Sequence record: MW250785
Source: Escherichia phage UPEC03
Length of the DNA stretch: 64,000 nt
Strand: one strand, 5' to 3'
Below the pieces are notes generated by a model. That model was not told the origin of the DNA, ran no database searches, and saw only the letters and a list, made by a program, of their open reading frames with translations. Of the stretch, positions 10,805 to 27,063 are shown piece by piece. A program made the position numbers and the translations under genes. Numbering within the stretch: position 1 is the first letter of the stretch; each line of letters begins with the position of its first letter.

Positions 10805-11034
10805 TTTACATCCTCAAATTGTAAGTTTTCTTTGGTTGCGTTCGCAATGGCTTTTTCGTTGCTCAGTGTTACTATGCGCAGACGTTCTCCAGTAAAGCCG
10901 TCGCATTCAGTGATACTTACCCAGTCAAAAGGTTTAGCCATTTCAATCGCACGTTCCAGCGATACGGTAGAACCGACCAAATCACTAAATGTATAGTAAT
11001 CTTCGCTTAAACTTTCAACAGTATAAATTTTCAC
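10801..11034 (-). CDS. Hypothetical protein (77 aa)
   Basis: Coupled small ORF (4-nt overlap). Confidence 0.4.
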   Translation of the reverse strand: MKIYTVESLSEDYYTFSDLVGSTVSLERAIEMAKPFDWVSITECDGFTGERLRIVTLSNEKAIANATKENLQFEDVK

Positions 11035-11273
11035 GATACTTTACCTTTTGTTTCAGATTTCAGGACGATGTTACTGTAAGGATCTTTTGCTACCAGTTCC
11101 CACAGGTCGCCAGGATGTTCCCCGCTACGGTAGACGGATGAACGGATGATTTCGTTAAACTTGCTCAGGGCTTCGTCTATGTCGTCATACCCGCATTTGA
11201 GAGGCTTACGGTTGCAACGAATGAAGAACATTTCGTTGGTATTCTCCCAGCGTTCGGCGTTTTTAACCTTCAT
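11031..11273 (-). CDS. Hypothetical protein (80 aa)
   Basis: Coupled small ORF. Confidence 0.4.
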   Translation of the reverse strand: MKVKNAERWENTNEMFFIRCNRKPLKCGYDDIDEALSKFNEIIRSSVYRSGEHPGDLWELVAKDPYSNIVLKSETKGKVS

Positions 11274-11542
11274 ACCGCCTCCATTTTACCAATGACTTCT
11301 TCGTATGTCACAGGGTTAGGTTCATAGCCGTTAGCGCCTATTGTATCGCCTACTCTGTTTCCTACTAAAGAAGCAACCGCAACTTTCTTGCCGTCTTTCC
11401 ACGCAGTGAAATGCAGATTATCCGCAACATACGGGAAGGTTTCGTGATTGTTCACCGCGTCGATGCAGTCCATAACGGTATCAGACGCGCAGATCAGATT
11501 ACCAGGTTCATAATCAACCAAACATTCAACAGTGTAAATCAT
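11270..11542 (-). CDS. Hypothetical protein (90 aa)
   Basis: ATG preceded by GAGGA and an upstream hairpin (11553-11575). Confidence 0.45.
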   Translation of the reverse strand: MIYTVECLVDYEPGNLICASDTVMDCIDAVNNHETFPYVADNLHFTAWKDGKKVAVASLVGNRVGDTIGANGYEPNPVTYEEVIGKMEAV

Positions 11543-11584
11543 AATAATTTCCTCACGAAAAAGCCCCTTTCGGGGCTTGATTAA

Positions 11585-11863
11585 TCAGTGTCCGAACACA
11601 CCACGAATAGACTCTGCGAACGCGTACAGTTCAGGGTTTTTCGCTTTCACTGTTTCGATTTGTTCCAGGATGTAATCTGGTTTGTATTTCGCACCGAACC
11701 AGCAGTAAGAGAAAGAACGATCCCACATGAACACGTTGTAGTATTCACCGTTACGCACTTCAACCATCACGTAACCTGGATTAGAACCCAGCGGGTAATC
11801 TTTCAGTAGATTAAATTTCGCACCAGCGCCAGTACATCCGTTAAACAGGTCATTAAAAGTCAT
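11585..11863 (-). CDS. Hypothetical protein (92 aa)
   Basis: ORF with ATG start. Confidence 0.45.
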   Translation of the reverse strand: MTFNDLFNGCTGAGAKFNLLKDYPLGSNPGYVMVEVRNGEYYNVFMWDRSFSYCWFGAKYKPDYILEQIETVKAKNPELYAFAESIRGVFGH

Positions 11864-11916
11864 GGTATGTTCCTTTTCAGTTTCGTTTCGGTAAAGCTAA
11901 TGTATCACTATCCTGG

Positions 11917-12453
11917 TCAGTATGCAATGTTTAATTTTGCAAATTTACCAAAATGTTTTATCGCTTCCCGATCGTATGCTTTTGCAGCCTCGTATTCGTC
12001 ACGATAGGAACCGATATGTTTAACCTTGCCGTCAATCTTTATCTGTGCAATGTAACGTATTCCAGTAGGTTGATCACGTACACATACACCCTTGAATCGA
12101 CTGGTTGCTACTCTTCGTTTAGTCCGGTTCTGACAGTTTCGGGATTGATCCGCTTCACGCAAGTTATCAATCCCGTCGCCAGCCTCAACACCATTTTTAT
12201 GATCAATCACATCAGGCAGTTTTCCGGTTGCAACGTAGTAGATGATTCGATGACGTAGATATCCTTTGCTTTTGAAATAAACGCGGGTATATCCTCCTTT
12301 AATCTTCGAACCTACTTCCTTTCCGATCAAGTCAGAACGTTTGTGTGACGTTCGTATAATTGTCCCCGTTTGTATATCAACAGAAACAGTTTTAAGGAAT
12401 TCGTCAATTCCTTTCTGTTCTTCTTCGATTGTTCTTAGTCCGTTGTGTGACAT
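11917..12453 (-). CDS. HNH endonuclease with C-terminal AP2-like DNA-binding domain (homing-endonuclease-like)
   Basis: HNH-type motif ...VIDHKNGVEAGDGIDNLREA...; AP2-like FKGVCVRDQPTGIRYIAQIKIDGKVKHIGSYRDEYEAAKAYD; paralog at 26069-26593; overlaps Dcm stop by 19 nt. Confidence 0.75.
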   Translation of the reverse strand: MSHNGLRTIEEEQKGIDEFLKTVSVDIQTGTIIRTSHKRSDLIGKEVGSKIKGGYTRVYFKSKGYLRHRIIYYVATGKLPDVIDHKNGVEAGDGIDNLREADQSRNCQNRTKRRVATSRFKGVCVRDQPTGIRYIAQIKIDGKVKHIGSYRDEYEAAKAYDREAIKHFGKFAKLNIAY

Positions 12454-13358
12454 AACACCTTCTTGATTTGTTTTGCTATAGCCTCGATTACTGGTATTGA
12501 AACAGAATTACCTGCTTGTTTATACGCTTGCATCTTGCTTTTGTTGATAATAAACGAATCTGGGAAACCCTGCAAACGAAAACACTCACGGGGAGTAAGT
12601 CTTCGGGGGTTCTTTCCTTCCTGCAATACCAGACATTGAACACCATCTTTATAGTAATTTGCAGTGATAGTCCCAGTGTGCGTAGAATCGCTTGTGACGG
12701 CCTGATAACCGAAACCCTTACCGTTTGCCTTATTTCGTTCCTTACGCTCTCTAAAGCCCTTCCATGCGTTATCTGACAGGGTGAACGAATCATCAGCATC
12801 TTCGAGGATGTCGCCTACGCGTGTAGGGGTACGCGGGGGAACCGGAAACGAAAAGAATACATCATCCAGGAAGCAGACAATAAACACGCGTTCCCGTCTT
12901 TGGGGTAGTCCGAAATCCTTTGTGTTCAGGCGTTGATAGAATACGTTATATCCTTCGGCCTCCAGAAGCCCGTAAATCGTTTTAAACGTCTTCCCCTTGT
13001 CATGGGTTAGCAGTTCAGGCACGTTCTCAAAGAACAACACACGGGGCTTTTTAGCGCGTATAATGCGGAGGATTTCGAAGAACACCGTACCGCGTACATC
13101 ATCAAAGCCCAGTTTCAATCCGGCTTTACTGAACGCCTGACACGGGAACCCCGCGAGCAGGATATCATGATCAGGTACTTTGTTTTCATCAATGGCGAAT
13201 AGATCACCCTGTAGGTTATCATCGCCCCAGTTTTCGATATATGTTTGCTGTGCGAACTTGTCGATTTCAGACGTTAAAAGGCATTCGACACCGCCGAACG
13301 CCTTATCAAATCCTAATCGAACCCCGCCCACACCAGCGCAGAGGTCAATTATTTTCAT
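12435..13358 (-). CDS. DNA (cytosine-5)-methyltransferase, Dcm-type
   Basis: Motif I DLCAGVGG, motif IV GFPCQAFS, ENV motif FFENVPEL; 307 aa. Confidence 0.85.
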   Translation of the reverse strand: MKIIDLCAGVGGVRLGFDKAFGGVECLLTSEIDKFAQQTYIENWGDDNLQGDLFAIDENKVPDHDILLAGFPCQAFSKAGLKLGFDDVRGTVFFEILRIIRAKKPRVLFFENVPELLTHDKGKTFKTIYGLLEAEGYNVFYQRLNTKDFGLPQRRERVFIVCFLDDVFFSFPVPPRTPTRVGDILEDADDSFTLSDNAWKGFRERKERNKANGKGFGYQAVTSDSTHTGTITANYYKDGVQCLVLQEGKNPRRLTPRECFRLQGFPDSFIINKSKMQAYKQAGNSVSIPVIEAIAKQIKKVLCHTTD

Positions 13359-13624
13359 ACGTCAAAATCAATCTCGTCGATTTTGTATGAGTTTTCGTCA
13401 ATGTCCGCCCATAGGGTTACATTAACGTGTTTGCTATCTTCGTACAACTGGCGACCATCAATCCCGCCCGTGTAATTGCTTTCGGTACGTTCAGTAACTT
13501 CCAGTCGGAGGCTATCGCGCATGATCTGAACAACAGCCTGTTCCAGTGTAACTGCGTCTGGGTTTTTGGTATCGCCCAGTACAACATCTTTAACGTTCAA
13601 AATAATATCAGTCATTAGTGCCAC
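13355..13624 (-). CDS. Hypothetical protein (89 aa)
   Basis: Coupled ORF between nucleotidyltransferase and Dcm genes. Confidence 0.4.
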   Translation of the reverse strand: MALMTDIILNVKDVVLGDTKNPDAVTLEQAVVQIMRDSLRLEVTERTESNYTGGIDGRQLYEDSKHVNVTLWADIDENSYKIDEIDFDV

Positions 13625-13857
13625 TCCGTTTTAATACCATGTCGGTATGCGTCAATCCCCAGCGGGGTAATCAGCAACCATGCTTTCGAATTATCGTGAT
13701 AGCCCGTTACCCTTCGAGCGTAACCTTTTTGAATCAGGGCATCACGCCCTGATTTGCTGGGTACGTCATCGAAATCTAAGTCTAGCACCTTAGTTGCATA
13801 TCCGTAAAGTTTATACAGAACATCAATTTCAGCGCCGGACAATTTAGGATACATCAT
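13615..13857 (-). CDS. Hypothetical protein (80 aa)
   Basis: Coupled ORF, overlaps both neighbours by a few nt. Confidence 0.4.
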   Translation of the reverse strand: MMYPKLSGAEIDVLYKLYGYATKVLDLDFDDVPSKSGRDALIQKGYARRVTGYHDNSKAWLLITPLGIDAYRHGIKTEWH

Positions 13858-14855
13858 TTGTAATACCCCACAACATGATCGCGGTATACGCGTTCGATGA
13901 AATCGTTCCAGAATTCGCGGTCAACTTCTTTCGGATATGTTGAAATCGCTGCAAGCCGTTCGACTTCGCCCATGACTTCTTCCAGCTTTTCCTGTACGGT
14001 TGCGAACGGTACGCCGCCAGCTTTAACCAGTTTCAGGAATGCGCTATCAGGCAGAGGATAAACGATATCACCATCTTTGTAAATCTGGATCAACTGCATA
14101 CCACCGCGCAACGCGTGACTTAAAGCCTTCCAGTCGATGCCGTTGTTGGCTTCTGCTTGTCGTGCGCGTTCTCCGTATTCATCCCAGAGTTTGTACACTG
14201 ACTTACGCATTTCATCGGCTTTGATCGTGAACTGGAATTTACGCCCCAGCACTTCATAGAAGTCCTGACAACCAGATTTCATTGTCGTGTCGGTAACGAA
14301 TCGGCAGAACTCGTTTGTAGGGAAACGATTCTTGATGTCAGACACTTTCACTTCACGCGTATAGCGTTTCATATCTGGTGTGAATTCCTGAATACCACCG
14401 ATCGTTTCGGTTTCTTTCAGTACATCGACAACTTCGCGCAGTGCAGCCAGTCGGGAACCTTTCACACCATATTTTGCGGCTTGCTTGCGAACATAACCGA
14501 ACAGGCCAGTTAGTTCAGTGGTGTAAAAACGCCAGCGGTTAGCGCGGATATACTGCCAGATTTCAGAGTTAGCGATCAGCTTGTCATCCGAAGCGTGAAG
14601 CATATCGAGCGCTACGGTATCACCATCACACGCAAGGCTGATAAACTTAGTCAGACTATACAACTGACGATCAACGTCGTCTACGGTGTTTTTAGAGCTT
14701 TTATCGCCCGTGCTGGTGTCGATAGACTTCTTCGCAGTGCCTAACAGGATTTCGCGAGGATGAGGGAGATAGATCCCTTTGTAGTCTTTATCGCTTGTTG
14801 GTGTTTCCAGTCCGTAAAGATGGGATCCAAAAATCATTTCAGTAATCATTTTCAT
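13854..14855 (-). CDS. Pol-beta superfamily nucleotidyltransferase-domain protein, function unknown
   Basis: N-terminal GSHLYGLETPTSDKDYKGIY matches the G[GS]x9-13Dx[DE] NTase signature; ATG at 14855 (listed 14870 start is TTG) overlaps HNH stop as TAATG. Confidence 0.6.
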   Translation of the reverse strand: MKMITEMIFGSHLYGLETPTSDKDYKGIYLPHPREILLGTAKKSIDTSTGDKSSKNTVDDVDRQLYSLTKFISLACDGDTVALDMLHASDDKLIANSEIWQYIRANRWRFYTTELTGLFGYVRKQAAKYGVKGSRLAALREVVDVLKETETIGGIQEFTPDMKRYTREVKVSDIKNRFPTNEFCRFVTDTTMKSGCQDFYEVLGRKFQFTIKADEMRKSVYKLWDEYGERARQAEANNGIDWKALSHALRGGMQLIQIYKDGDIVYPLPDSAFLKLVKAGGVPFATVQEKLEEVMGEVERLAAISTYPKEVDREFWNDFIERVYRDHVVGYYK

Positions 14856-15613
14856 TATACAAATCTCCAATAAAACCCTTTATGAGTTTTTCTTTTACCG
14901 TTACAGCATGAACTTACATGCCCTTTGTTATACCCCATTTCAACGGCTTCCACAATACCACCATTTAAAATAGTTTCTCTTTCTGTTTTGATACATTTCA
15001 TAATCAAAGGTTTTATCAATTCCGTCTTCTTTTGTGAAATATTAGCTAATGCAATTACATTTCTGATATCAGATTCACTCATTAAATCAGAAATCTTCTT
15101 TCTTAACCATACATAGCCTTGACTTTTGGCAAGTTTGCCGGAGCAACATTCATGAATATGACTAGGGTTAAATCCACGCAATTTCATTTCTTGCCGACCG
15201 CCTAATATGATAATCTCGTCTCCTGTTTCAAGGTTGAATCCGACAACTGGAATTATTTGCCGTTCCGACATTTTCTTTCTCGCTTCTTTCGTGAATATTG
15301 TAAGAGATTTTAATTTTCTCGCGTCGCTCATTTGCGAAGATGTCGTTTTGTATTTCTTAGTATTATGAGACATACGGAAAAAAGCATATCTCATTTTATC
15401 ACCAGCATACTTAGCAAGTAGATGATGAGCAAGATAATGCTCTTTATATGTTAAATATACTAAATTTTCGGGTTCATCAGTACCACCTAATGACTTAGCA
15501 ACGATATGGTGTATATCATAACCGCGCTTTCTATACTTTTTCGAGTAACCTTTAGGTATATCTCTTCTTTTTGCCAATGTAATTAGTTGGTCGTAAATAC
15601 GCTTATAGTTCAT
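14855..15613 (-). CDS. HNH homing endonuclease-like protein
   Basis: GYDIHHIVAKSLGGTDEPENLVYLTYKEHYLAHH HNH motif; ATG at 15613 with AAAGGAGAG SD (listed start is GTG). Confidence 0.75.
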   Translation of the reverse strand: MNYKRIYDQLITLAKRRDIPKGYSKKYRKRGYDIHHIVAKSLGGTDEPENLVYLTYKEHYLAHHLLAKYAGDKMRYAFFRMSHNTKKYKTTSSQMSDARKLKSLTIFTKEARKKMSERQIIPVVGFNLETGDEIIILGGRQEMKLRGFNPSHIHECCSGKLAKSQGYVWLRKKISDLMSESDIRNVIALANISQKKTELIKPLIMKCIKTERETILNGGIVEAVEMGYNKGHVSSCCNGKRKTHKGFYWRFV

Positions 15614-15743
15614 ACACTCTCCTTTAGGCGTATTTATCACTTAAAATCCGAACACGGTTTCCATAATCATTTTCATCAGAATTCAACCTTTAATGTTTTT
15701 GCGATCCCGCGCAATTCCGCGGTAGTAATAACAGGGATCATAA

Positions 15744-16016
15744 TCATTTCCTCACAGTTTCAAATTCTTCGTCAGATTTCCAGTACACGTTAAAGTTACG
15801 GCAATCGTGGTCGGAAGTCAACGTATATTTTTCTTTTGTTTTCTCGTCGGTGATCACCATCGTTTCATTCTCGATCGAGTCCACACCATAGACGAATACT
15901 TTATCACCGCGTTTATTCAGGAACGCTTCACCTGTTTCAACCAACTGCCAGCAGTTGACGGGTAAACCACCCGCACAGATCGGACGGTTTACGAGGCAGT
16001 AAGGACGTTTAATCAT
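15744..16016 (-). CDS. Hypothetical protein (90 aa)
   Basis: ORF with ATG start. Confidence 0.4.
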   Translation of the reverse strand: MIKRPYCLVNRPICAGGLPVNCWQLVETGEAFLNKRGDKVFVYGVDSIENETMVITDEKTKEKYTLTSDHDCRNFNVYWKSDEEFETVRK

Positions 16017-16207
16017 TTAAATTCTTCCATTGCATAGGAAGTAAGATCTTTGAAATACCTTGCGGTGTTGCCTTCTGGGTTGTTTGTAATCTCCATCAGG
16101 ATAACAGCACCATCAACTCCTGCTTTCTTAGCCATGAATGAAATGGCTTCGGTAGCAATAATCGTTGCTTTCATAACATCAGCTTTAGAAACGTTGATCG
16201 TATTCAT
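16013..16207 (-). CDS. Hypothetical protein (64 aa)
   Basis: First gene downstream of module copy 2. Confidence 0.4.
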   Translation of the reverse strand: MNTINVSKADVMKATIIATEAISFMAKKAGVDGAVILMEITNNPEGNTARYFKDLTSYAMEEFK

Positions 16208-24712: not shown

Positions 24713-26059
24713 TTAAAAGTTCTCTTCGACGAATGCAGCCAGTCGCCCACGATATACGGTATCCAGGATCACATGACTTGAATGACCGTACTCTTTAAGT
24801 TTTTCAACCGCATACACAAAGCCGTTGTTAACAGCAGTGTTGCGCGGGTTGTCAATCTGTTTAATGTTCCCGCATAGTATCAGAAGGGTGTTCTCACCGC
24901 AACGGGAAATGATGGATTTGATTTCGTGATTGCTCAAGTTTTGACATTCATCAACAATCAGAACCGAACCTTTACCCGGATCAGGATGCCCGATTGAGCG
25001 CCCACGGAAGTAATACAGGCTAGGGAACTGGACAACGTTTTTCTCCAGCAGCCCTTCTACGTATTTGTCAACTTCCGGTTGATCCTTAAACAGAATGTTC
25101 AGGCTCGTAATACATGGTTCTACAGCAGGACGCAGTTTTTCGCCAAGAGTACCAGGTAAGAACCCGATTTCGCCCGACAGAGGGCTATCTGCCTTGACAT
25201 ACATCAGGTTTGCGAAGTGTCCCGCGTTTACCATGTGCATTGCACCAGCAACAGCCAGCATGGTTTTACCTGAACCCGCCGCGCCCATGATGGTCACAAC
25301 GTCATTGTTTTTGTCCAGAATAGCATCAACGAATGACGCTTGCAGAGCATCGCGAGGCTGAATTGTTTTCATCAGCTTACGCTTTAACGCCTGTTCGTGC
25401 TTAATAGGCAACACTTCAAGCTGAAACTCTCCAGCATTCACCACACGCCCTACAATCTCACCACACGATAGAATGTATTGGTTAGGGTAGAAATCCGCGT
25501 CAGGAAGCGATGAATACGTTATAACGGCAACAGGCCCGACATACTCCAGGACTTCAACAGTTTCCCAGAACAGAGGCAGGTCGATATAACCTGAATACAA
25601 CACATCACTATCTTTCAGCGAGTCATCGCCAGTGTATTGAAGAACCGAACAACCTTTAGACATCGCGATCAACAGCATGTTAATGTCACGAGTCACCAGA
25701 GTTGCGCCCTGCTGAATACAAGTTGCAATGATCCGCGCATCCTGTTTATCCAGAGGGAATTCTTCGGTGCCGTCATAATCGACGATTTTCAGTGTTACGC
25801 TTTCCGGTACTGCTGGGTTCGATAAGTTTAACGAAACCCCTGTTTGGGTAATTGCTTCATAATTTTGTCCCAGGATTGCTTTGGACAAAAGCCGGATCGC
25901 CAGTCGTGCTTCATGAGCGGTTCGCTCTTTGCTTTTCAGGTGATCCAGTTCTTCCATCGTTGCAGCGGTGATAATGATTTCGCTGTCAGGTTCGATGTAA
26001 GAATAGATTGAATATGGGTTACTAATCAAAACATTGGTGTCTAATACGTATTTTGACAT
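24713..26059 (-). CDS. phoH: PhoH-like ATPase with N-terminal PIN domain
   Basis: N-terminal YVLDTNVLI (PIN-like); Walker A GAAGSGKT; Walker B LIVDEC. Confidence 0.8.
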   Translation of the reverse strand: MSKYVLDTNVLISNPYSIYSYIEPDSEIIITAATMEELDHLKSKERTAHEARLAIRLLSKAILGQNYEAITQTGVSLNLSNPAVPESVTLKIVDYDGTEEFPLDKQDARIIATCIQQGATLVTRDINMLLIAMSKGCSVLQYTGDDSLKDSDVLYSGYIDLPLFWETVEVLEYVGPVAVITYSSLPDADFYPNQYILSCGEIVGRVVNAGEFQLEVLPIKHEQALKRKLMKTIQPRDALQASFVDAILDKNNDVVTIMGAAGSGKTMLAVAGAMHMVNAGHFANLMYVKADSPLSGEIGFLPGTLGEKLRPAVEPCITSLNILFKDQPEVDKYVEGLLEKNVVQFPSLYYFRGRSIGHPDPGKGSVLIVDECQNLSNHEIKSIISRCGENTLLILCGNIKQIDNPRNTAVNNGFVYAVEKLKEYGHSSHVILDTVYRGRLAAFVEENF

Positions 26060-26068
26060 ACATTAACC

Positions 26069-26593
26069 TTATGTGGTTTCGTTAAAAAATGTGCCGAAAA
26101 CCTCTTTCGCTTTCCGGTCATAAACGGCTTTTGCTTCTTCTGGAGTGGTATAATACCCCAAAAATTTTCTTTTTCCATCTATGTTTATCTGCGCTTTATA
26201 CTTCCCATTTGCTTTGTGATAAGAAACACCTTTCAACCCCGTACTGCTGTTTGAATTACATTTCTTTTTCATCGCGTTTTGTTGGTTCGTCGCTTTCTGT
26301 AGATTTCTTGCTGTATCTCCATTTTCAACACCATACACATGATCTACGATAGGAGGAAGATAACCATTCTCAACGTAAAACACTATTCGGTGTCGCAAAT
26401 ACATAGAACCTTTAAAATGAATTTGGGAATACTCGTTCTTGCTTCCGGCTTCACTTCCAGGAGACATAGGGCCGCGCTGAATTTTCCAATACACTTTTCC
26501 CGTAGATGTATCAACATCTACATAACTCAGAAGAGACTCAATCCCTTGAATCTCTTCCTGTATGGTTCTTGATGAATAACCATGACTTTTCAT
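26069..26593 (-). CDS. HNH endonuclease with AP2-like domain (paralog of 11917-12453)
   Basis: MKSHGYSSRTIQEEIQGIESLL... parallels the other HNH-AP2 protein; AP2-like LKGVSYHKANGKYKAQINIDGKRKFLGYY; ATG at 26593 overlaps upstream stop by 1 nt. Confidence 0.7.
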   Translation of the reverse strand: MKSHGYSSRTIQEEIQGIESLLSYVDVDTSTGKVYWKIQRGPMSPGSEAGSKNEYSQIHFKGSMYLRHRIVFYVENGYLPPIVDHVYGVENGDTARNLQKATNQQNAMKKKCNSNSSTGLKGVSYHKANGKYKAQINIDGKRKFLGYYTTPEEAKAVYDRKAKEVFGTFFNETT

Positions 26594-27063
26594 TACATAC
26601 CCAAACGGATAATATGGATATATGGGAACGGGTGAAGATGACTTGAACGCATACACAAGGTCAGTGTTTTTGCCAGTTCAAACCGTTCGTCGATCGTCAT
26701 GTCGCATTCATCGAAAATCAGGTTGATTGCCTGATACTTGATCGTTTGTCCACGGAAAATGGTATTCAGATCTTGACGTTTCGACAGAATGAAAGACGAA
26801 TCAGCGCCCTTATCCATTCCATGTTCTGCCGCAGCACAAATACCCATTTGCTTTGTCGGCGCAACGTAGATATTCAGTGTCCCTTTCGACTGCTTGATGA
26901 TATCGAAAGCCGCTTTGGTTTTACCCGACATCCGGCCCATATCCAGCGCAGTTTCGAAAATAGACACACCGCCGCATTCTTGCCCCCAACGCCCATCAAT
27001 GATTCGCGCAAGGTGCAGGTTACGTGACTGCTTTACAGCGTCAACATAGAATTGTGAAATCAT
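26593..27063 (-). CDS. Hypothetical P-loop-like protein (156 aa)
   Basis: Deviant Walker A-like GRMSGKT and Walker B-like LIFDECD; directly upstream of the HNH gene. Confidence 0.4.
   Translation of the reverse strand: MISQFYVDAVKQSRNLHLARIIDGRWGQECGGVSIFETALDMGRMSGKTKAAFDIIKQSKGTLNIYVAPTKQMGICAAAEHGMDKGADSSFILSKRQDLNTIFRGQTIKYQAINLIFDECDMTIDERFELAKTLTLCMRSSHLHPFPYIHIIRLGM

Follow-up and report, generated by a model that had tools for sequence, protein, structure and literature searches.

The 64,000-nucleotide stretch of Escherichia phage UPEC03 analyzed here (sequence record MW250785; hereafter the window) carries a gene for a complete C5-cytosine methyltransferase whose 3' end overlaps the gene of an HNH endonuclease with an AP2 DNA-binding domain. 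Our analysis makes it highly probable that these are two functionally independent genes, which are neighbours as the HNH-AP2 gene is a site-specific selfish element lodged beside an orphan methylase. The original prediction had considered a restriction-modification-like or exclusion module but preferred a protective methylase next to an inserted homing endonuclease gene, and this preference is borne out by a polymorphism confined to one site, a clean insertion, a mosaic flank, paralogues elsewhere and a listing in the literature. The arrangement is ordinary and belongs to an already described class. Indeed, the identical protein is publicly annotated as 'homing endonuclease [Escherichia phage UPEC03]', and the copy of Enterobacter phage EC-F1, with 99.8% nucleotide identity and the same encoded protein, as 'putative homing endonuclease RB16 6'.

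Presence, insertion and transfer of the HNH-AP2 gene

The window comes from a Pseudotevenvirus, of the RB16/RB43/GAP161 group of T4-like phages, and its closest genome is that of EC-F1, from the same genus (97.5% identity over the region). The region matches ~176 records of T4-like Straboviridae with Klebsiella, Enterobacter, Cronobacter, Citrobacter and Escherichia as hosts; these phages fall in the genera Pseudotevenvirus and Slopekvirus (the KP15/KP27 group). The locus is carried by 166-176 related records (~170), which form the denominator for the presence of the HNH gene. Near-full-length copies, with 82-99.8% nucleotide identity, are found in 21 records from both genera, and all 21 overlap the methylase gene, always at the same site; in ~87% of the related records the methylase occurs without the HNH gene. 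The distribution is thus that of a gene sporadically present at one fixed site, with intact empty sites elsewhere. A scan of IMG/VR with the methylase returned six close loci only, mostly reference phages, and the GenBank phage collection was more informative.

Examination of the relatives lacking the gene delimits the insertion. In blastn, the homology of the window to GAP161 and Olmo, which have an unrelated small open reading frame (ORF) in place of the HNH gene, ends at 11912 and restarts at 12451-12457. On the right-hand side, homology to all relatives resumes at an intergenic junction (11864..11916). The slot 3' of the methylase gene occurs in at least five states: it holds the HNH gene, a 146-aa ORF, a 78-aa truncation of the latter or an RB16-type ORF, or it is empty. 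In Slopekvirus, the HNH gene corresponds to ~528 bp cleanly inserted at the final codons of the methylase gene, the empty site reading ...GCGCTT before the insertion point and GCATAGG... after it. Indeed, KP27 (empty) and phT4A (HNH-bearing) have identical flanks, with ~528 bp between ...GCG(C/T)T(T/A) and GCATAGG. The empty site of KP27 reads ...AAAGCGCTT directly followed by GCATAGGCTAACGAAGAATAGTATAGTG, and the filled site of phT4A reads ...AAGGCGTTA, then the ~528-bp segment, which opens with TGTCACAT and closes with AAATCTT, and then GCATAGGCTAACGAAGAATAGTATAGTG. The insertion is equally clean against the empty sites of KP15 and Matisse, and GCATA, the first 5 nt past the insert, matches the methylase tail of Slopekvirus.

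Other forms of the locus were also encountered. KLB1 (1704-1952) holds a decayed HNH copy, in which the first 51 residues are kept, after which the reading frame is lost or unrelated sequence is joined; this remnant is annotated as a hypothetical transmembrane protein. In HMGUkp1, leE and Banach, an extra 71-aa gene (gp203 in Banach; in the part 1197-1500 of the locus) separates the HNH gene from the conserved 92-aa gene that follows it. The intergenic motif ...TTTACCGAAAC... occurs twice, once on each side of this small gene, an arrangement reminiscent of the mobile promoter cassettes reportedly found in the hyperplastic regions of T4-type phages.

The overlap of 19 nt between the two genes, as originally predicted, is exact to the nucleotide. 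The start codon of the HNH gene (12451-12453) lies within an extended methylase tail, CHTTD, whose stop codon is at 12435-12437. Whatever gene fills the slot, its start codon is the same ATG, normally part of an ATGA stop/start overlap with the methylase; HNH-bearing alleles have ATGT instead of ATGA, and their methylase gains the five codons of CHTTD. The overlap thus exists because ATGA became ATGT upon insertion, and judging from these alleles it would be a by-product of insertion and not a sign of coupling. A GAAGG resembling a ribosome-binding site (RBS) is located within the methylase codons KKV, and the HNH gene appears to use the translation and expression signals of the operon itself. 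A promoter and terminator scan of 11000-16200 gave counts equal to the shuffled expectation and nothing flanking the HNH gene. A hairpin masking the RBS or start codon of the HNH gene was also considered and dropped, none being predicted beyond shuffled sequences (z +1.3).

The HNH assignment is supported by the Pfam family HNH_3 (E value 3e-6; 27.2 bits for a curated cut-off of 24.8) and by PHROG 99, 'HNH endonuclease' (2.6e-48). Residues D84, H85, N97 and N106 are invariant across 26 homologues and align residue for residue with the active-site pattern of I-HmuI. They provide, at the correct spacing, the Asp-preceded catalytic His, the structural Asn and the metal-binding Asn/His of a beta-beta-alpha-metal nuclease of the I-HmuI-like (HNH_3) type. 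The AP2 domain is less apparent, as the Pfam AP2 model has no match in the single HNH sequence even at E values up to 10. However, phmmer retrieves the plant AP2 proteins WRI1 (2e-4) and TEM1 (0.019), aligned to residues 105-175, and a profile of the 26 family members, searched against structures, aligns its C-terminal 60 residues with WRI1 (1e-18), TEM1 (4e-10), ERF096 and AtERF1. Across the HNH module it matches I-HmuI (2e-8), and 19 of the 26 members individually match Pfam AP2 (PF00847). The protein is assigned on these grounds to the AP2/ERF family, whose domain of ~60 residues is recognized by the pattern (Y/F)(R/K)GV...W.A.I...LG.F...EAA.AYD.AA. Profile evidence therefore argues that the AP2 domain named in the original prediction is real, though a single-sequence Pfam search misses it.

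The HNH-AP2 family is not confined to the methylase locus. A paralogue with 40% identity is encoded in the window at 26069..26656 on the minus strand, between a PhoH/PIN gene (24713..26059) and its neighbour; the corresponding position is unoccupied in phage Miller, which carries an HNH-AP2 gene abutting its DNA ligase gene. The HNH protein is itself mosaic: those of HMGUkp1, leE and Banach differ heavily from that of the window in the N-terminal ~64 residues and are almost identical to it in the HNH and AP2 domains.

The flank of the insertion is mosaic. Compared with GAP161, the window has 44 mismatches over 12462-12669, in contrast to a single one over 11056-11912 and zero over 12850-13605. 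Compared with the HNH-bearing EC-F1, it has 2 mismatches over 11906-12830, followed by 21 in the next 500 bp. The tract 12454..12669 is 21% diverged from GAP161 and Olmo and 99.5% identical to EC-F1 and KPN-11i, both HNH-bearing. The backbone of the window is thus GAP161/Olmo-like, with an EC-F1-like patch whose outer limit is at ~12830, so that the HNH gene and 215-380 bp of the methylase 3' end came together from an EC-F1-type donor. This tract is asymmetric, reaching into the methylase gene, and on the mismatch pattern it looks like a footprint of homing and co-conversion. Furthermore, synonymous divergence (dS) of the methylase gene rises from 0.01-0.09 in its first 690 nt to saturation in the 3' tract, with a boundary found again at nt 690-720 when independent pairs are compared.

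The HNH alleles evolve under purifying selection, with ratios of nonsynonymous to synonymous divergence (dN/dS) of 0.11-0.24. Between the window and Kiwi, dS is 0.49 for the HNH gene and 1.12 for the methylase gene; the HNH gene therefore crossed genera after their split. It is found on at least three classes of methylase 3' allele. Taken together, the gene has moved horizontally along with a co-converted flank, with the caveat that diverged 3' tracts also separate HNH-less alleles. These observations represent, side by side, the stages through which a homing endonuclease is expected to cycle, from invasion and maintenance to decay and loss.

The orphan methylase and its predicted site

The methylase is complete, as had been claimed from its DLCAGVGG, PCQ and ENV motifs. 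It matches Pfam PF00145 end to end (E value 3e-92; profile positions 1-324 of 324) and contains DLCAGVGG (aa 5-12), GFPCQAFS (aa 70-77, with the catalytic Cys73), FFENV (aa 109-113), QRRER, RRLTPRECFRLQGFP and GNSVSIPV. C5-cytosine methyltransferases are recognized by ten motifs in canonical order, including FxGxG (motif I, which binds S-adenosylmethionine), Pro-Cys (IV), ENV (VI), QRR (VIII) and GN (X), and the protein belongs to this family. The designation 'Dcm-type' holds in part. The catalytic core is nearest to M.HhaI, the best solved structure (6e-64 over aa 2-299, versus 3.5e-47 for Dcm). On the other hand, the target-recognition region, when searched alone, matches only the Dcm structures 3lx6 and 3me5 (6.6e-10) and not HhaI, and its homology to Dcm-type enzymes stands. 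A GCGC specificity deduced from the likeness to HhaI was accordingly ruled out, since this likeness is limited to the catalytic core.

The methylase is kept at the locus in every relative examined, even in the diverged phage Miller, and the RB43 counterpart, RB43ORF127c, has been listed as a C5 methylase (PMC1524935, PMC2993671). A bacterial homologue with ~60% identity is found in a Morganella P2-like prophage, where it adjoins a protein with an EcoRII-C domain; other bacterial homologues with ~60% identity carry the label 'nlaX'. In three independent metagenome contigs, such 'nlaX' homologues (~58% identity) are encoded directly downstream of a GmrSD-type restriction gene (type IV, modification-dependent). 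It is odd to find a C5 methylase paired with an enzyme whose target is modified DNA.

Restriction-site statistics point to the sequence that may be methylated. In the window, CCWGG is found 118 times for 98 expected, CCSGG 7 times for 60 expected, and GGWCC once for 54 expected; the latter two show the strongest depletion among all 1024 pentamers. Twenty-five six-base palindromes are absent or nearly so (at most 13 copies and under 0.35 of expectation), 20 of them having zero copies, as illustrated by AAGCTT (0 observed vs 22 expected), CAGCTG (0 vs 27) and CTGCAG (0 vs 19). GATC is not avoided (429 observed vs 438 expected). GCGC is likewise at its expected level, a tolerance that the predicted specificity of the methylase leaves unexplained. 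Phage Miller had been envisaged as a methylase-less control for the tolerance of CCWGG and was dropped in this role, its methylase being present and diverged only at the DNA level. The site statistics were instead replicated independently on Miller, and the pattern recurs in 50 kb of its genome (50-100 kb), with a ratio of 1.43 for CCWGG and 0.03 for CCSGG.

As CCWGG is tolerated but CCSGG purged, a Dcm-like CCWGG specificity is predicted rather than CCNGG, and the enzyme is expected to methylate the inner C of CCWGG. The simplest reading of the statistics is that CCWGG is protected by methylation and CCSGG is not, and the orphan Dcm-like methylase probably shields CCWGG sites from host restriction. 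This prediction agrees with the published resistance of KP15 and KP27 DNA to EcoRII (PMC3620542). Gene 42, encoding the deoxycytidine monophosphate (dCMP) hydroxymethylase, is absent in KP15 and KP27 (PMC3620542) and is not listed for RB16 and RB43. These phages thus have no hydroxymethylcytosine pathway, and cytosine is therefore open to C5 methylation. As to the methylomes of these phages, a search of the literature yielded evidence from restriction digests only.

Two independent genes and the alternatives

In the explanation that we favour, the methylase would be a conserved orphan anti-restriction enzyme of the RB43-like and KP15-like T4-type phages with ordinary cytosine, working through the standard Cys73 (PCQ) mechanism. 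Methylation of CCWGG would shield the fast-replicating phage DNA from EcoRII-type enzymes and, at these sites, also from the CCNGG-type enzymes common in Enterobacteriaceae. The AP2 domain of the neighbouring protein would bind a long target, and the single I-HmuI-like HNH centre (D84/H85/N97/N106) would nick or cut the HNH-less allele in a co-infection. Recombinational repair with the HNH-bearing genome as template would then transfer the HNH gene to the recipient, together with methylase 3' sequence from its flank. Located at the end of the methylase ORF, the HNH gene would borrow the shared start position and RBS of the slot and would be transcribed with the early gene cluster.

Several observations weigh against this explanation or parts of it. 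The tolerance of CCWGG could stem from the Dcm of the host, a confounder, and not from the phage enzyme. The bacterial homologues labelled 'NlaX' hint, by comparison with M.NlaX and M.SsoII, at CCNGG rather than CCWGG. With respect to the nuclease, no published biochemical assay for this HNH-AP2 lineage was found in the literature. Furthermore, the 3' 216 nt of the methylase gene are strongly diverged between HNH-less alleles too; for GAP161 and Olmo, neither of which has the HNH gene, dS is saturated in the 3' tract and 0.06 in the 5' 690 nt. This divergence is not attributable to the endonuclease alone, and part of the mosaic may reflect ordinary cassette exchange at a hyperplastic slot. Finally, immunity substitutions shared by all HNH-bearing methylase alleles were sought and rejected, as none is common to all except the junction: the NKSKMQ variant of the window is restricted to its lineage, and the tract of leE, HMGUkp1 and Banach resembles that of Olmo. 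Immunity of the carrier through site disruption is therefore only presumed.

One cluster of substitutions deserves mention in this respect. Kiwi, phT4A and KLB1, which carry the HNH gene or its remnant, share five substitutions at methylase nt 703-716 that turn YYKDG, a conserved motif of the recognition loop, into YGKDG, and the empty-site allele of KP15, a close relative, retains YYKDG. This cluster could be a patch conferring immunity to cleavage or a change in methylase function. In a bolder reading, to which we give an outside chance, the HNH-AP2 enzyme would itself drive hypervariability in the 3' ~216 nt of the methylase gene, by cutting ~215 bp upstream of its own gene within the sequence of the target-recognition loop (TITAxYYKDG). 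The six or more allele classes, with their saturated synonymous divergence and their recurrent boundary at nt 690-720, would have arisen through repeated cleavage, co-conversion and selection for resistant synonymous recoding, the Slopekvirus YGKDG cluster being an immunity mutation. If so, the YGKDG change might also alter the specificity of the methylase.

The adjacency, common orientation and overlap of the two genes, together with the fact that all 21 near-full-length HNH copies adjoin the methylase, could suggest a restriction-modification-like or exclusion module, in which the HNH enzyme cuts DNA devoid of the methylase mark and the methylase protects its own genome. We consider this very improbable, and this part of the original prediction does not survive the comparison of genomes. 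Indeed, ~87% of the related genomes have the methylase without the HNH gene, the overlap arises trivially from the change of ATGA into ATGT, and HNH-AP2 paralogues are found at unrelated sites with no methylase nearby. The partner of the closest bacterial methylase homologue is an EcoRII-C-type protein unrelated to HNH. Moreover, CCWGG is absent from the methylase 3' tract and from the ~30 nt on either side of the empty-site junctions, and with 118 copies in the window, a CCWGG nuclease would be a genome-wide cutter, unlike an AP2-guided enzyme with a long site. A link between CCWGG and the insertion site was examined and discarded: the only nearby site, CCTGG at 11912-11916, lies just after the HNH stop codon inside the inserted segment, and the empty sites have none. 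The pair does not constitute a Type II restriction-modification system, which has an obligate nuclease partner sharing the specificity of the methylase. Homing endonucleases do cause marker exclusion of competitors, and 'exclusion' in this weak sense is compatible with independent genes; the word would apply only in the homing sense, the endonuclease-less allele of a co-infecting relative being cut and converted.

Two other alternatives leave the methylase aside and concern the HNH gene. It might be a domesticated or regulatory resident, immobile and beneficial, that nicks DNA for recombination-dependent replication or acts on the expression of neighbouring genes. Purifying selection holds across alleles at dS 0.5-1.0, the gene uses the translation signals of the host operon, and regulatory roles have been proposed for the HNH genes of KP27 by Maciejewska et al. 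(PMC5219037). An active homing endonuclease is, however, equally expected to be under purifying selection. A beneficial gene would not be expected to be missing in most close relatives, replaced by unrelated ORFs or by an empty slot, or to decay as in KLB1, and the signal of transfer between genera and the recombinant patch point to ongoing mobility; a resident role is thus quite unlikely. Alternatively, the HNH ORF might have arrived by illegitimate or homologous cassette shuffling at the hyperplastic slot, its own nuclease, perhaps inactive, playing no part. The slot does have five or more alternative contents, HNH-less alleles are themselves set apart by diverged methylase 3' tracts, and leE, Banach and HMGUkp1 hold their extra small gene between repeated copies of an intergenic motif. 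Nevertheless, the catalytic D-H...N...N and AP2 residues are invariant and under purifying selection, and the gene is found at an identical nucleotide position in both genera and in combination with three or more methylase 3' backgrounds, which is hard to account for without site-specific targeting. Shuffling of this kind as the whole explanation is accordingly most unlikely.

The finding matters little beyond annotation, where the two genes should not be entered as a restriction-modification or defence module of the phage. It nevertheless yields a CCWGG prediction for a widespread orphan methylase of phages of Klebsiella, Enterobacter and Cronobacter that are therapeutic candidates, and whose genomes otherwise rely on extreme avoidance of restriction sites. 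The exactly defined empty and filled sites offer a clean set of substrates for the HNH-AP2 class in T4-like phages, and the locus offers a natural example of what looks like a homing footprint across two phage genera.

The features of the locus are collected in Table 1. Close to it, at 14855..15640 on the minus strand, the window encodes a second homing-endonuclease-like protein, of 261 aa and unrelated to the first, with an HNH motif and an I-HmuI NUMOD-like C-terminus, which matches PHROG 655 'homing endonuclease'. Its gene overlaps the end of a gene for an NrdC.11-like nucleotidyltransferase (13854..14870) and is missing from the corresponding place in EC-F1, GAP161 and Olmo. A 3.5-kb portion of the window thus harbours two selfish endonuclease genes of different kinds.

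Table 1. Coordinates of the methylase/HNH-AP2 locus in the window
Feature	Position	Strand	Remark
C5-cytosine methyltransferase gene, orphan	12435..13358	minus	ORF, 307 aa
Methylase motif I	13323-13346	minus	
Methylase motif IV (PCQ)	13128-13151	minus	
Methylase motif VI (ENV)	13020-13034	minus	
Methylase motif VIII	12882-12902	minus	
Methylase target-recognition region, aa ~188-262	12573..12797	minus	Dcm/EcoRII-like; contains GKGFGYQAV...TITANYYKDG
Methylase motif IX	12561-12605	minus	
Methylase motif X	12489-12512	minus	
Methylase 3'-terminal tract travelling with the slot	12454..12669	minus	last ~216 nt; from mismatch maps, segment identities and dS
Overlap of methylase and HNH genes	12435..12453	minus	19 nt
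Putative HNH-AP2 homing endonuclease gene, free-standing	11917..12453	minus	ORF, 178 aa
Variable N-terminal region of the HNH protein	12262..12453	minus	aa 1-64
HNH domain, I-HmuI-like	12127-12261	minus	aa 65-109
AP2 DNA-binding domain (profile-supported)	11929-12105	minus	aa 117-175
Segment without counterpart in HNH-less Pseudotevenvirus genomes	11913..12450	not assigned	HNH ORF + 4 nt; blastn breakpoints
Conserved intergenic junction downstream of the HNH gene	11864..11916	minus	…TGACCAGG/ATAGTGATAC…GAAACGAAACTGAAAAGGAACATACC ATG
Conserved 92-aa gene	11585..11863	minus	reached via the junction 11864..11916

Comparison with known systems

The HNH-AP2 class is said to have been defined by Magnani in 2004. 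Six putative homing endonuclease genes of this class are known in RB16 and three in RB43 (PMC1524935, PMC2993671), and the genes described in RB16, RB43 and RB49 (Nolan 2006, PMC1524935; Petrov 2010, PMC2993671, Table 5) come from the same phage group as the window. Like these, the gene studied here encodes an I-HmuI-like HNH module followed by a C-terminal AP2 domain, and it shares their free-standing state, size (~170-195 aa), multiple copies and sporadic occurrence. Unlike the window, RB16 has no HNH gene at the slot, its nearest copy being a 36%-identical paralogue 1.5 kb away. Throughout the group, members of the class are 'putative' homing endonucleases.

I-HmuI is a monomeric strand-specific nicking enzyme, and by analogy the HNH-AP2 enzyme may be one as well. 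The HNH module aligns with that of I-HmuI from Bacillus phage SPO1 (PDB 1u3e) at 2e-8, with the same spacing of D-H, N and N (VVDHKDGNKDNNLSTNLR...QKIN vs VIDHKNGVEAGDGIDNLR...QSRN). However, I-HmuI is intron-encoded and binds DNA through NUMOD and helix-turn-helix elements, whereas the gene of the window is free-standing and is predicted to rely on AP2. Intronless homing by SegF, SegG and MobE of T4 (PMC2993671, section 13) likewise involves a gene between or abutting conserved genes, as here. These enzymes make a double-strand break in an endonuclease-less co-infecting genome, which is repaired with co-conversion of the flank, and the EC-F1-type patch of the window fits such a process. Seg proteins are GIY-YIG enzymes and Mob proteins belong to another HNH lineage, and their cleavage sites and co-conversion tracts have been measured, while those of the window are inferred.

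With Dcm (E. coli/Shigella) and the EcoRII/SsoII/NlaX group, the methylase shares a recognition region of the form GxGFGY...T(L/I)(S/T)AxYYKDG. Unlike Dcm, it is short (307 aa) and devoid of the N-terminal extension, and its core is closer to M.HhaI than to Dcm, its CCWGG rather than CCNGG specificity being a prediction only. While Dcm and the enzymes of the EcoRII/SsoII/NlaX group are its relatives in target recognition, the methylase of the window differs from them in that it is an orphan encoded by a lytic phage and has neither Vsr nor a restriction enzyme as partner.

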